Shown here piece after piece: positions 9,389-48,350 of a stretch of 64,000 nt of DNA; position 1 is the stretch's first letter; each line of letters opens with the position of its first letter. A program made the translations under genes and the position numbers. Origin of the DNA: a phage. The notes beneath the pieces were generated by a model. The model was not told the origin of the DNA, did not search any database, and saw nothing but the letters and a program-made list of their open reading frames with translations. The stretch lies in sequence record PQ374922.1; one strand, given 5' to 3'.

Positions 9389-9428
9389 GTGAAACCATCA
9401 AGATGACCCTGGTCAAGCCGTGATTACA

Positions 9429-9460
9429 ATCCCCCTAAATACAGGGGGATTTCTTTTTCT
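9429..9460 (+). terminator. intrinsic terminator
   Basis: ATCCCCC-loop-GGGGGAT hairpin followed by TTCTTTTTCT. Confidence 0.65.
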
Positions 9461-9883: not shown

Positions 9884-10495
9884 ATGAGCAAAATCTTTAT
9901 CCCGTCACACCGCGAAGGATGTGAAATCGCGGCCAACTACCTGCGCGGTCGCATGAACTGCGGCGCTGTCTTCATCGAGCCAAATTCGTTTGACAACAAA
10001 GAATCACCTGATGCCATCGGGTTCCGTTCCGGCGGTTGCTCTATCCTGATGGAAGTGAAGGTGTCTCGCTCTGATTTCCTTACCGACAAGAAGAAGCCCC
10101 ATCGGATGGACCCCACAACAGGTATGGGCGCATACCGCTTTTATGTCTGCCCTCAGGAAGTAATCAGGGTTGAAGACCTACCACCAAAGTGGGGGTTGTT
10201 CTACTTCACACCCCGCAAGTCCCTGATGCCAGTTCATGTGCCAGACATGCAGTACTCTTCATTGTCATCACCGGAGCATTATCAGAAGTACCTTGATGAA
10301 CAGATCAAGAGAGGAAGAACCGTTACCCGGCATATGCGCAGCTACATGGAACTCCTCGACGGCTTCGCCCACTTTGAGCGCAACATGGCTGGGGAACAGA
10401 ATATCCTGTATGGGGCTTGGCGTCAACTGTGTATAGCTCAAAGTCGTGGTGTAGACTATACTGTGACCGAAGTGTTCCAGAGGCCGAAGATCTAA
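9884..10495 (+). CDS. PD-(D/E)xK nuclease-fold protein (VRR-NUC-like motif)
   Basis: Motif SPDAIGF ... ILMEVKVSRSD matches PD...(D/E)xK core; SD AAGGA 7 nt upstream of ATG 9884. Confidence 0.5.
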   Translation: MSKIFIPSHREGCEIAANYLRGRMNCGAVFIEPNSFDNKESPDAIGFRSGGCSILMEVKVSRSDFLTDKKKPHRMDPTTGMGAYRFYVCPQEVIRVEDLPPKWGLFYFTPRKSLMPVHVPDMQYSSLSSPEHYQKYLDEQIKRGRTVTRHMRSYMELLDGFAHFERNMAGEQNILYGAWRQLCIAQSRGVDYTVTEVFQRPKI

Positions 10496-11151
10496 TGAAC
10501 TATCAAAAAATTCATGACGCTATAATAACCAGAGCCAGAGATAGAATTTTAACTGGTTACAAGGAAAAACACCACGTCATCCCTCTATCTCTTGGTGGTG
10601 AAGACAGGAACTACAATAAAGTTTCTCTCACAGCATCTGAACATTATATTATTCATCTTCTGTTGGCCAAAATTCACGGCGGGGTAATGGTCAGCGCATT
10701 TAAAAAGATGCGCCACTTGACCTCTAATCCTCCAAACAATAAAGAGTTTGCCGTCAGGAGGGAATTGTTGTGTACAACAGCCGGGGAGAAAGCGAAAGAT
10801 CCACAAAAACGGAAAAGGCATTCTCTGAAAATGAAGGGTAGAAACCATACAGAATCTGCCAAATTATCAATATCCAATTCCATGACTGGGGAGAATAACC
10901 CAATGAAGGGGATACCTGCATGGAGGAACCCGACCAACATCAGCCGAGGAACTCATAAAAATTGGTTGGCGGCTGGAGAAATTTATGACTTGTACGTCAC
11001 AGGGAAATTTTTAAGAGTTATCGACCTCTTCAATGCTTGCAAATTGCCGACATCATACGGAACGGTTTCCACCATAAAAACAAAATTGGAATTGGGTTGG
11101 GAGCCAAGGAAAGACGCGGATTGGTTGCAATTCTATGAGGAACACAAATGA
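10495..11151 (+). CDS. HNH homing endonuclease
   Basis: HNH motif HHVIPLSLGG...N...LTASEH; AT-rich relative to neighbours; inserted between nuclease ORF and primase with TAATG/ATGA overlaps. Confidence 0.7.
   Translation: MNYQKIHDAIITRARDRILTGYKEKHHVIPLSLGGEDRNYNKVSLTASEHYIIHLLLAKIHGGVMVSAFKKMRHLTSNPPNNKEFAVRRELLCTTAGEKAKDPQKRKRHSLKMKGRNHTESAKLSISNSMTGENNPMKGIPAWRNPTNISRGTHKNWLAAGEIYDLYVTGKFLRVIDLFNACKLPTSYGTVSTIKTKLELGWEPRKDADWLQFYEEHK
10495..11151 (+). mobile_element. free-standing homing endonuclease gene (HEG)
   Basis: Intergenic HNH ORF with lower GC than flanking replication genes. Confidence 0.5.
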
Positions 11152-12474: not shown

Positions 12475-12495
12475 AATAATTTTTTAAAAATTATT
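12475..12495 (+). repeat. AT-rich perfect palindrome upstream of promoter C
   Basis: AATAATTTTT t AAAAATTATT (10-bp arms, 1-nt centre); candidate UP element or regulator site. Confidence 0.4.
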
Positions 12496-12504
12496 GAAAA
12501 AGAC

Positions 12505-12533
12505 TTTACTCTTCAATAATGATGCACTATTAT
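12505..12533 (+). promoter_or_regulatory. sigma70-like early promoter, copy C (TTTACT-N17-TATTAT)
   Basis: -35 12505..12510, -10 12528..12533; AT-rich palindrome 12475..12495 just upstream. Confidence 0.5.
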
Positions 12534-12606
12534 AGTTCACATAGGGCGGCAACACACCGCCGAATGAAAAGTGAAATGAACCAACTACATTATGAGGAAT
12601 TACATC

Positions 12607-13095
12607 ATGGCTACCACCAAAACTCTGATCACCAACGGCACCATCTCTTTCGAACTGAACACCGAAGTTGCTAAAGTTGAAATGTTCCGCATCGCTCAGG
12701 CAGCTGGCTTCACTGGTGGTAAAACTTCCTTCATGAACCTGCTGAACGGTAAAGTGAAATCGACAAACGGCTTCACCCTGGTAGAGCAGGTTGTGGTTGA
12801 CAAAGCTGTGGTTGATAAGACTGCCGACAAAGTTGGTATGCTGAAAAACCTGGGTCACGACATCCACATTGTCGAAGCAAACACCGAAACTTACGGCACC
12901 ATCGTAGTCGGTAAAGGTCGCATCCAGCTGAACCCGCTGAACAACGGTTCCTTCTCTGTGATGGTCTTCCCTAAGAAGGGATATGACAACACCGACATCG
13001 TGAAAGCTGTTGGCGGCGAAGCAAAAGCTCAGTACGTCAAAATGGGTAAACTGAGCGCCGACGCAGTTGAAGCTCTGGTGAGCAAACTGGCCTAA
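12607..13095 (+). CDS. hypothetical protein, probably abundant
   Basis: Own sigma70-like promoter and terminator; SD GAGGAA; apparently highly biased codon usage (judged by eye); 162 aa. Confidence 0.65.
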   Translation: MATTKTLITNGTISFELNTEVAKVEMFRIAQAAGFTGGKTSFMNLLNGKVKSTNGFTLVEQVVVDKAVVDKTADKVGMLKNLGHDIHIVEANTETYGTIVVGKGRIQLNPLNNGSFSVMVFPKKGYDNTDIVKAVGGEAKAQYVKMGKLSADAVEALVSKLA

Positions 13096-13241
13096 TCCAG
13101 ACGTATAACATAGGGGAGGCAACTCCCCCTATCAGGTCTTGGGAGGAGATCACAGTCATTCAATCCTCTTTAGGCGCTCTCTGGGTTGCTGACACATTCA
13201 GAACAAAGTCTCCCCCAGCTCCTCGAGTAGTTCACTTTCAC

Positions 13242-13249
13242 TTTAAATA
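13242..13249 (+). promoter_or_regulatory. late-promoter-like motif TTTAAATA upstream of endolysin
   Basis: One mismatch to T4 late consensus TATAAATA; lies in 5-prime arm of RBS hairpin, 31 nt before ATG. Confidence 0.4.
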
Positions 13250-13275
13250 CCTCTGCATTCATTGTGGAGGTATTT
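13245..13275 (+). promoter_or_regulatory. RBS-sequestering hairpin at endolysin start
   Basis: 9-bp perfect inverted repeat AAATACCTC / GAGGTATTT (13245..13253, 13267..13275) with 13-nt loop; 3-prime arm contains the GGAGG Shine-Dalgarno. Confidence 0.55.
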
Positions 13276-13279
13276 TCTT

Positions 13280-14074
13280 ATGGCCATTCTAAAACTTGGC
13301 AACCGTGGCACTGAAGTGAAGGCACTTCAGGATAGCCTCAACAAAATCGGCTTCACCCTCGTCGCTGATGGTATCTTTGGCAAGGCAACAGAGAACGCCG
13401 TCAAGACTGTTCAGGCGGGTGCGGGGCTTGTCATTGATGGTATCGTGGGTCCAAAGACCTCCTATGCTATTCGCAACGCCGGAGACGCCCATCAGGATCA
13501 TCTAACTGAGTCAGACCTGATTGATGCTGCTAACGATCTGGGTGTTGACCTTGCCTCTGTCAAGGCGGTGAATCAGGTTGAGTCGCGCGGCACGGGCTTC
13601 ACCAAGTCAGGTAAGATCAAGACATTATTTGAGCGCCACATCATGTATAAGAAGCTGATGGCGAAGTTCGGACAGGCTCGGGCGAATGCCATGGGGCATA
13701 TGTACCCGACGTTGGTCAGTCCTTCCGCAGGCGGGTACACGGGAGGCGACGCGGAGTTGGATCGACTTCATGCGGCCATCAACATCGATGAGGATTGTGC
13801 GTACGAGAGCGCCTCTTACGGTCTCTTCCAGATCATGGGATTCAACTGCCAGGTCTGTGGATATGCCAACGCCAAGGAGATGTTCAACGACTTCCTGACA
13901 GGAGAACGTGCTCATTTGATGGCATTCGTGAAGTTCATCAAGGCTGACGCCAAGCTCTGGCAGGCTCTGAAGGACAAGAACTGGGCTGAGTTTGCGCGGC
14001 GCTATAATGGTCCGGCGTATGCCAAGAACCAGTACGACACGAAGCTCGTAGCAGCATACAAGAGTTTCAGTTAA
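13280..14074 (+). CDS. endolysin (peptidoglycan-binding domain plus muramidase-like catalytic domain)
   Basis: N-terminal PG_binding_1-like repeat (LQDSLNKIGF...DGIFGKATENAVKTVQ...DGIVGPKT); C-terminal domain resembling phage N-acetylmuramidase endolysins; ATG 13280 with GGAGG SD. Confidence 0.7.
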   Translation: MAILKLGNRGTEVKALQDSLNKIGFTLVADGIFGKATENAVKTVQAGAGLVIDGIVGPKTSYAIRNAGDAHQDHLTESDLIDAANDLGVDLASVKAVNQVESRGTGFTKSGKIKTLFERHIMYKKLMAKFGQARANAMGHMYPTLVSPSAGGYTGGDAELDRLHAAINIDEDCAYESASYGLFQIMGFNCQVCGYANAKEMFNDFLTGERAHLMAFVKFIKADAKLWQALKDKNWAEFARRYNGPAYAKNQYDTKLVAAYKSFS

Positions 14075-14079
14075 CTCAA

Positions 14080-14104
14080 AGGCCGGAAACGGCCTTTTCT
14101 TTAT
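14080..14104 (+). terminator. intrinsic terminator after endolysin
   Basis: AGGCCG-GAAA-CGGCCT followed by TTTTCTTT. Confidence 0.65.
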
Positions 14105-27902: not shown

Positions 27903-27936
27903 GGTGAGGACTCCACTTAAATAAAATAACTGTTAT

Positions 27937-27944
27937 TATTTATA
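27937..27944 (-). promoter_or_regulatory. T4-type late promoter TATAAATA
   Basis: Exact TATAAATA on minus strand, proximal end 35 nt from GTG start 27902. Confidence 0.55.
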
Positions 27945-30794: not shown

Positions 30795-30823
30795 ATTTAA
30801 GTTCAGAAACTGTTCAAAAGATG

Positions 30824-30858
30824 AAGGGGCTGCTATAATAGCAGCTCCTTTTGTTTAT
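30824..30858 (+). terminator. intrinsic terminator
   Basis: 12-bp stem AAGGGGCTGCTA/TAGCAGCTCCTT followed by TTGTTTATT. Confidence 0.6.
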
Positions 30859-30869
30859 TGGAGCAGTTT

Positions 30870-37571: not shown

Positions 37572-37635
37572 GCAATTCAATAAGGCGGGTCATAGGGTAT
37601 AATTCTATGATCTGAATGTAAACCAGGAGCACATC

Positions 37636-40517: not shown

Positions 40518-40588
40518 CTGAGGACTACACACTGACCTCATTATCGGTCAGGCAAAATCTCACACCCGCCAATAATCTATTGAAGTCC

Positions 40589-40621
40589 CCAGGGTTATAA
40601 TAGCAGCACATATAACCCTGG
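40589..40621 (+). promoter_or_regulatory. hairpin immediately upstream of DNA ligase RBS
   Basis: 11-bp inverted repeat CCAGGGTTATA / TATAACCCTGG with 11-nt loop; GGAG SD overlaps 3-prime arm end. Confidence 0.4.
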
Positions 40622-40630
40622 AGACACCAC

Positions 40631-48310: not shown

Positions 48311-48318
48311 CTTAAATA
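48311..48318 (+). promoter_or_regulatory. late-promoter-like motif CTTAAATA upstream of gp4-like gene
   Basis: Plus-strand TAAATA core 33 nt before ATG 48351; divergent with minus-strand motif. Confidence 0.35.
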
Positions 48319-48334
48319 GATAGAGTGTTATGGC

Positions 48335-48342
48335 TATTTAGG
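48335..48342 (-). promoter_or_regulatory. late-promoter-like motif CCTAAATA upstream of baseplate operon
   Basis: Proximal end 35 nt from ATG 48300, same spacing as the other two minus-strand late genes. Confidence 0.4.
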
Positions 48343-48350
48343 ACTAGATT

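Follow-up and report, generated by a model that had tools for sequence, protein, structure and literature searches.

Organization of the Endolysin Locus

The DNA described here, a stretch of 64,000 nucleotides (nt) from a phage (sequence record PQ374922.1; hereafter, the window), carries an endolysin gene whose leader is predicted to form a hairpin that contains both a late-promoter-like element and the Shine-Dalgarno (SD) sequence of the gene. Sequence comparison of the region identifies it as Ackermannviridae DNA, 98.7% identical to that of Escherichia phage A221, with matches to 223 Ackermannviridae records from Aglimvirinae, Kuttervirus, Limestonevirus, and Taipeivirus. Ackermannviridae is a T4-related family with gp55/gp33 late transcription. 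The endolysin gene (13280..14074, + strand) encodes a protein of 264 amino acids, in which a domain search detected PG_binding_1 and the N-acetylmuramidase domain PF11860. Its ATG at 13280 is shared with the annotation of relatives and is the sole start codon conserved in Miltonvirus.

The same-strand neighbors of the endolysin gene are early or middle genes, including those for primase, PhoH, and NrdAB. The gene directly upstream (12592..13095, + strand) belongs to PHROG 3764, is of unknown function, and is the likely source of read-through transcripts. Sigma-70-like sites lie ahead of it at 12494–12533, and the annotation of phage LIMEstone1 places a “putative middle promoter” before its homologue. 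Between 13095 and the endolysin hairpin, the terminator scan of the window called no + strand terminator. Sequence reading and folding revealed a hairpin GGGGAG-GCAA-CUCCCC at 13113..13128 (+), after the PHROG 3764 gene, but it has no + strand U tract and was not called as a + strand terminator.

A Hairpin Containing the Shine-Dalgarno Sequence

The region 13240–13282 reads acTTTAAATACCTCTGCAttcatTGTGGAGGTATTTtcttATG. An original prediction, made from the sequence alone, had described a perfect 9-bp inverted repeat at this position, and the repeat finder reports identical arms: AAATACCTC (13245–13253) and GAGGTATTT (13267–13275), 9 nt each, 100% complementary, and 13 nt apart. In the RNA, four further pairs (U13254.G13266, G13255.U13265, C13256-G13264, and A13257-U13263) extend the stem to 13 pairs, formed by 13245–13257 and 13263–13275 and closed by a loop of 5 nt. 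The minimum free energy of this hairpin is −16.1 kcal/mol (z −4.04), which none of 200 shuffled sequences equals, and the same helix is retained when it is folded in a 231-nt context. All its parts lie on the + strand. The 5′ arm, AAAUACCUCUGCA (13245..13257), holds the anti-SD sequence CCUCU; the loop obtained by folding, UUCAU (13258..13262), appears in relatives as TTCAT, TACAT, ATCAC, or AACAT; and the 3′ arm, UGUGGAGGUAUUU (13263..13275), holds the SD sequence GGAGG (13266–13270). Four of the five bases of GGAGG lie inside the perfect 9-nt arm and all five inside the extended stem. The 3′ arm stops 4 nt short of the ATG, and the spacer between GGAGG and the ATG is 9 nt; thus, the original placement of GGAGG in the 3′ arm was correct, whereas its distance of 5 nt before the ATG was approximate.

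Two other features overlap this stem. The gp55-type late-promoter-like element TTTAAATA (13242..13249, +), with the core TAAATA at 13244–13249, overlaps the 5′ arm, and a U-rich, terminator-like tail, UAUUUUCUU (13271..13279, +; direct reading), overlaps the base of the stem. Taken alone, neither the repeat nor the promoter motif is remarkable. Perfect 9-bp inverted repeats with a spacer of 3–20 nt are common in the window (13 observed versus 4.0 ± 2.0 expected), and TTTAAATA is present in a single copy against 0.77 expected, which is not significant. The case rests on position and conservation. A scan of 12900–13500 against Rfam found no known RNA family. The sense RNA is more stable than the antisense RNA (−16.1 versus −10.8 kcal/mol) because of the G.U pairs, and this difference counts against a DNA palindrome.

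Predicted Occlusion in Long and Short Transcripts

For the whole window, the region from −70 to +30 around each start codon was folded for 90 genes. The SD zone of the endolysin gene is 0.97 paired, the second-highest value among the 90 genes, whose median is 0.55. Among the 196 genes of A221, the nearest complete genome, the resolvase gene ranks first and the endolysin gene second when the measure is pairing between the SD zone and the 15 nt just upstream of a start placed at −25. On transcripts entering from upstream, the SD sequence is accordingly modeled as sequestered in a stable hairpin.

The original prediction further held that a late transcript lacking the 5′ arm would have a free ribosome-binding site (RBS), and it proposed folding the leader with and without that arm as a check. 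In this comparison, the SD zone was 0.97 paired in long transcripts versus 0.43–0.48 in transcripts beginning 5–8 nt past TAAATA, a predicted pairing below the median of the window, in agreement with that claim. Without the 5′ arm, the segment 13254–13310 is even less structured than its own shuffled versions (z +1.2). Among the leaders of A221, such a lock is found in 4 of the 25 genes with TAAATA and in 5 of the 171 others (Fisher p 0.017; Mann-Whitney p 0.057). These counts give little support to a lock in all late leaders, an idea that was set aside; only some genes have the lock.

TAAATA as a Late-Promoter-Like Element

When all 4096 hexamers were ranked by their occurrence 24–40 nt upstream of start codons in the correct orientation, TAAATA came first in the window (10 of 18 sites, p 2e-15), followed by TATAAT. 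The same positional preference is seen in the rebuilt A221 genome, in which TAAATA is the hexamer with the greatest enrichment 20–45 nt ahead of start codons (25 of 54 sites, p 3e-30). The genes concerned include homologues of the T4 late genes for gp14, gp18, gp19, the scaffold, gp5, gp2, gp48, gp4, and gp6, and several of them lack any hairpin. The base before TAAATA is C at 12 and T at 6 of the 25 A221 sites. With a single occurrence in the window, the T4 octamer TATAAATA is not enriched there, and it was consequently rejected as the family motif in favor of the hexamer. Since C or T before TAAATA is usual in Ackermannviridae, the TTTAAATA of the endolysin leader conforms to the family pattern and is not a defective T4 promoter. 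Of the original claim about a T4-late-like motif, the position and the overlap with the 5′ arm remain, and the description as one mismatch from the T4 consensus gives way to a family core of TAAATA after C or T. The record of LIMEstone1 (HE600015) labels the homologous TAAATA a “putative late promoter”, an in silico call that is 1 of 33 made by similarity to T4.

Late promoters of T4 carry TATAAATA at about −13 to −6. From this geometry, we infer a late transcription start at 13255..13257 (+), approximately 6–8 nt past the final A of TAAATA. A conserved block, TTCACTTTCACTT (13231..13243, +), which includes a tandem of CACTTT, adjoins the promoter core on its upstream side; no function was assigned to it, and T4 late promoters need no upstream element. 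This block, shared by four genera, is invariant or nearly so in the leaders of Aglimvirinae, Kuttervirus-type phages, and Taipeivirus despite their differing upstream genes, but it has no other copy in the window and is absent from Miltonvirus.

The proteins that would use such promoters are encoded by these phages. A gp33-type late co-activator is encoded in the window at 25317–25562 (Pfam Trans_coact, 8.5e-18), the gene for the late sigma factor gp55 lies in A221 directly left of the first gene of the window, and the clamp gene is located elsewhere in the A221 genome. Homologues of gp55, gp33, and gp45 (the clamp) have also been reported in the papers on AG3 and CBA120. According to the CBA120 paper, the sequence that the late complex recognizes was unidentified for Ackermannviridae.

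Elsewhere in the window, divergent late-type promoters at 27918–27944 (gp54-side/gp2) and 48313–48345 (gp48/gp4) overlap as TAAATA...TATTTA palindromes, and this overlap also increases the predicted SD occlusion of gp4 and gp48.

Conservation of the Leader

In IMG/VR and GenBank, about 20 relatives share a conserved segment of approximately 55 nt that precedes the ATG, and the sequence further upstream, including the neighboring genes, differs among them. The leader is conserved in five genera, in all of which TAAATA is invariant at its position. Six distinct leader types form the same hairpin, with energies of −12.9 to −18.2 kcal/mol. Changes at the three variable stem pairs are, with one exception, only between G-C and G.U, and the loop varies at four of its five positions. 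Miltonvirus, with 61% protein identity, has the same architecture with a different stem, tgaATAAATAcCCTCTG-loop-CAGAGGGtttttcattATG. Covariation within the endolysin clade is weak evidence, which neither proves nor disproves the stem; stronger evidence comes from the Miltonvirus stem, the sense/antisense difference, and the cassettes with different inner stems described below.

The conserved segment also marks a mosaic junction about 55–60 nt before the ATG, seen when window positions 13096–13225 are compared with those of relatives (L001, L003–L018); LIMEstone1 has two extra open reading frames (ORFs) upstream.

A Second Predicted Lock before the Resolvase Gene

The gene at 24191–24781 encodes a RuvC-like Holliday-junction resolvase, a functional analogue of T4 gene 49. 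The repeat finder and folding revealed in its leader (24147..24189, +) a hairpin with the arms TAAATAGCCCATA ... TATGGGCTATTTA and the same architecture as that of the endolysin leader. This leader, cATAAATAGCCCATA...TATGGGCTATTTAcATG, contains a perfect repeat of 13 bp with an energy of −22.4 kcal/mol, whose 5′ arm carries TAAATA and whose 3′ arm stops 1 nt short of the ATG at 24191. Its SD zone is the most occluded of the 90 genes in the window. Compensatory changes are present here: LIMEstone1 has lost both bases of one G-C pair, and another phage has U-A in place of an A-U pair. The upstream stop codon lies approximately 8 nt from the stem. The arrangement of a promoter within a lock is not unique to the endolysin gene, and the resolvase leader supports, at the level of sequence, the view that Ackermannviridae may use the T4 strategy for hazardous late enzymes.

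Terminator-Like Features

The endolysin unit ends in a canonical intrinsic terminator at 14078..14097 (+), identified by the terminator scan and consisting of AAAGGCCG, GAAA, CGGCCTTT, and TCTTTAT. The endolysin hairpin was not called by the same scan of the window, although it shares features with such elements. Its inner stem, CCUCUGCA/UGUGGAGG, has 8 bp (four G-C, two G.U, and two A-U) and is followed by UAUUUUCU, with six U in eight positions, a tail similar to that of the terminator at 14078..14097. This 8-bp description counts the five closing A-U pairs as an A tract and a U tract; part of UAUUUUCU pairs with the A-rich 5′ flank. In Shigella phage phiSboM-AG3 (AG3), the homologous sequence ccttcgcattcattgcggaggtattttcttat has been listed as the rho-independent terminator Torf098 with −12.2 kcal/mol (Table S2 of PMC3121705). 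The downstream gene was not recognized as a lysin in that paper (PMC3121705), and the embedded promoter and SD sequence were not noted. The Miltonvirus version, CCCUCUG, a 9-nt loop, CAGAGGG, and UUUUUCAUU, directly follows a stop codon and looks like a canonical terminator. Termination and translational occlusion are compatible in one hairpin.

A similar combination is seen at 9428–9451 (+), where the loop of a canonical terminator, AATCCCCC / GGGGGATT followed by TTCTTTTTC, contains TAAATA at a distance of 31 nt from the start of a DUF5856 gene (9473). This element corresponds to Torf105 of AG3 (PMC3121705) and, from its sequence, resembles a terminator in which a late promoter is embedded. 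Sigma-70-type TATAAT boxes also occur inside stable hairpins upstream of genes, at 30812–30867, 37576–37631, and 40574–40629 (+). In the case of the DNA ligase gene (40631), the 3′ arm of the TATAAT hairpin reaches GGAG.

In the region preceding the primase gene, an ORF at 10495–11151 (+), between the ORF at 9884 and the primase gene, resembles an HNH-type homing endonuclease (motif HHVIPLSLGG...), and the gene content around it is unlike the annotation of A221.

Comparison with Known Systems

The closest known arrangement is that of T4 gene e, in whose leader late promoters lie within a hairpin that sequesters the RBS (McPheeters et al. 1986; reviewed in PMC3014915). Early read-through transcripts of T4 form the structure, and lysozyme synthesis is lowered about 100-fold (PMC3014915). 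Translation does occur from the transcripts of the two late promoters, in which the 5′ strand is missing, and soc, 49, and I-TevI are controlled alike (PMC3014915). The gene e leader reads ttTATAAATAccttcTATAAATActtaGGAGGTATTATG, and its arms, AATACCTTC / GGAGGTATT, form a hairpin of −14.9 kcal/mol (z −3.6), compared with −16.1 kcal/mol in the window. In both leaders, TAAATA in the 5′ arm is followed by an anti-SD sequence (CCUUC in T4, CCUCU here), the 3′ arm is GGAGGUAUU, and the arms are nearly identical. In each case, the phage has gp55/gp33, and the gene that follows the leader encodes a lysis enzyme and lies after earlier-class genes of the same strand. Yet the arms are alike by design, being a promoter core plus an anti-SD sequence and their complement, so that their likeness does not by itself indicate common descent.

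Several differences are present as well. The endolysins are unrelated, being a T4-type lysozyme in one case and a muramidase with PG_binding_1 and PF11860 in the other. T4 has two copies of TATAAATA, one in the arm and one in the loop, whereas the window has a single copy of the element with T instead of A at position 2. The spacer between the SD sequence and the ATG is 4 nt in T4 and 9 nt here, and the T4 tail AUGAAUAU is not U-rich, unlike the terminator-like tail of the window. Finally, the T4 mechanism has been proven experimentally, whereas that of the window is a prediction.

Other T4 genes, namely 49 (endonuclease VII), soc, I-TevI, segB, and mobE, are subject to the same control by a hairpin and a late promoter (PMC3014915, PMC2988022). 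The predicted lock of the resolvase gene (24191) parallels that of gene 49, although the enzyme is RuvC-like rather than an endonuclease VII. A further comparison concerns the PeSLs of T4-like phages, composite early-promoter/terminator stem-loops (Arbiol et al. 2010, PMC2839356; Comeau et al. 2014, PMC4122927). Like these, the endolysin element has a promoter inside a terminator-like stem-loop at a mosaic junction, and the TATAAT-box hairpins of the window are PeSL-like too. However, PeSLs, which recur in many intergenic regions and are associated with indel junctions, carry sigma-70-type early promoters and have not been described as hiding an RBS, whereas the element considered here combines a late-type promoter with an SD sequence. 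Thus, the endolysin leader is PeSL-like in design but is not a PeSL as defined, since its promoter is not a sigma-70 early promoter.

Proposed Mechanism and Alternative Explanations

We propose that the endolysin gene is controlled by a dual-transcript switch of the T4 gene e type and estimate the probability of this proposal at about 0.6, given its support in silico and the proven precedent in T4. Transcripts entering from upstream would hold both arms, and the 13-bp stem would bury GGAGG, so that ribosomes would be blocked and no early endolysin would be produced. Late in infection, RNA polymerase with gp55/gp33 would recognize TAAATA in the 5′ arm and start within it, at approximately 13255–13257. 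The resulting transcripts, without the anti-SD sequence CCUCU, would form no stem and would be translated. Since the stem is followed by UAUUUUCUU, the hairpin probably also terminates a fraction of the upstream transcripts, which may act as a second lock that is bypassed by the internal promoter. The T4 gene e-style control of the original prediction is hence backed in silico by the hairpin occlusion, the behavior of TAAATA, the gp55/gp33 genes, and the near-identity of the T4 arms, and all the computational tests that could be applied agree with it; a terminator role had not been considered in it.

A number of points weigh against this proposal. Read-through from the upstream gene into the endolysin gene is an assumption, and the position of the start is borrowed from T4; no usable transcription start, 3′-end, or RNA-seq data were found in the literature on Ackermannviridae or CBA120. 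The family consensus has C or T before TAAATA, versus TA in T4, and recognition rules may differ. The endolysin clade contains no double compensatory change (10 of the 13 pairs are invariant), and the roles of the arms as promoter and SD sequence constrain them too. The stem of Miltonvirus lies 8 nt past the upstream stop codon, where a terminating ribosome could open it and couple translation. Moreover, the hairpin resembles a terminator and has been published as one, and efficient termination would leave a translational lock little role.

The last point leads to an explanation in which the hairpin serves mainly to end the upstream early/middle unit as a rho-independent terminator. Its overlap with the late promoter and the SD sequence would then merely reflect the short intergenic space, timing would be set by termination together with the late promoter, and SD occlusion would be incidental. 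The listing of ccttcgcattcattgcggaggtattttcttat as Torf098, at −12.2 kcal/mol, argues for this explanation, as do the inner stem followed by a UAUUUUCU like the tail of the bona fide terminator of the endolysin unit, the canonical-looking Miltonvirus version directly after a stop codon, the TAAATA in the loop of the clear terminator at 9428–9451, and the existence of PeSLs in T4-like phages. Nevertheless, the scan of the window left the hairpin uncalled; its inner stem has just four G-C pairs, its U tract is partly paired, and it lies 150 nt past the upstream stop codon. The 3′ arm coincides with the SD sequence in both lineages as well as in T4 gene e, whose tail is not U-rich, and a pure terminator does not predict that the endolysin and resolvase genes are the two extreme outliers of SD occlusion genome-wide. 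Terminator and lock functions are not exclusive. We regard a mainly terminating hairpin as rather unlikely, albeit the main alternative. An alternative of considerably lower probability is that TAAATA does not act as a promoter here and that the endolysin is translated only from upstream-initiated transcripts, with the hairpin serving as a constitutive throttle that holds its translation at a low level or as a gate opened by a factor, temperature, or ribosome coupling. The lack of significance of TTTAAATA alone in the window is consistent with this idea, and coupling is conceivable where the upstream stop codon is approximately 8 nt from the stem, as in Miltonvirus and at the resolvase gene. 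In the window, however, the upstream ORF ends 150 nt away, so that coupling cannot open the stem. The strong positional enrichment of TAAATA, which extends to hairpin-less late-gene homologues, and its invariance at this position in five genera also disagree with an unused promoter. The inverted repeat might, in addition, be a DNA palindrome for a dimeric protein, that is, an operator over the late promoter as in the autorepression by I-TevI. The repeat does overlap the promoter, and T4 endonuclease operators overlap late promoters, but the stem of the sense RNA has G.U at two or three positions, which are mismatches in DNA and in the antisense RNA. Furthermore, the substitutions in relatives keep RNA wobble pairing rather than DNA symmetry, and unrelated cassettes are complementary with different sequences, which fits a structure and not a sequence-specific site. 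Given this strand asymmetry of the G.U pairs and of the energies, the operator was rejected as very improbable.

A Possible Wider Family of Cassettes

A pattern search in which only the ends were fixed (TAAATACC, a gap of 14–24, and GGTATTTTCTTATG) revealed the same ends before five other genes of uncultivated T4-related phages, with inner stems that differ yet are fully complementary. Two of these five genes encode GIY-YIG homing endonucleases, for which the predicted control would parallel that of I-TevI, segB, and mobE, and one pair shows a compensatory change from A-U to G-C. Another cassette precedes an ORF of 80 amino acids beside a T4-type DNA polymerase gene. The loci include L047 (63–845, −), L054 (434–870, +), L068 (5242–5678, +), and L066 (6983–7259, −). 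A megablast search of these metagenomic loci against isolated phages gave no match, and PHROG hits place them no more precisely than T4-related.

Outside the window, on the − strand of A221 (ON862890, 132059–132226; L045, 7059–7226), a perfect TATAAATA and, after it, an SD-locking hairpin of −15.9 kcal/mol belong to a gene whose 55-amino-acid product has a single transmembrane segment at its N terminus. The holin of Ackermannviridae has been reported as unidentified, and this protein is a candidate lysis protein.

The endolysin leader may thus belong to a group of portable cassettes with a late promoter in a stem-loop, having the base TAAATACC / GGTATTT(T) and a variable inner stem. We put this forward tentatively, as a possibility that we judge somewhat improbable as a whole. 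Such cassettes would act as self-bypassing terminators and as locks of the ribosome site. They could have spread or repeatedly evolved before hazardous late genes (for the endolysin, the junction resolvase, homing endonucleases, and a small membrane protein that is a possible lysis factor) across T4-related families, and they might mark recombination junctions as PeSLs do for early genes.

Significance for Ackermannviridae

What is probably new here is the proposed control of a non-homologous endolysin of Ackermannviridae in the manner of T4 gene e; the two halves of the element appeared separately in the literature, one as a promoter and the other as a terminator. The proposal reconciles these two conflicting published annotations of the same 40 nt, and it gives the family a testable late-promoter core, YTAAATA, for the element left unidentified in the CBA120 paper. 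For the expression and engineering of the endolysin, it implies that the native leader is likely to keep translation silent if transcription does not begin within it. To the specialist, the finding would be expected but useful, and the parallel with the resolvase gene and the cassette family deserve further study. Ackermannviridae include Vi01, CBA120, and the LIMEstone phages, which are used in biocontrol and therapy. If the proposal is correct, the solution of T4 gene e to premature lysis would also work in this family, before a non-homologous endolysin and before a resolvase.

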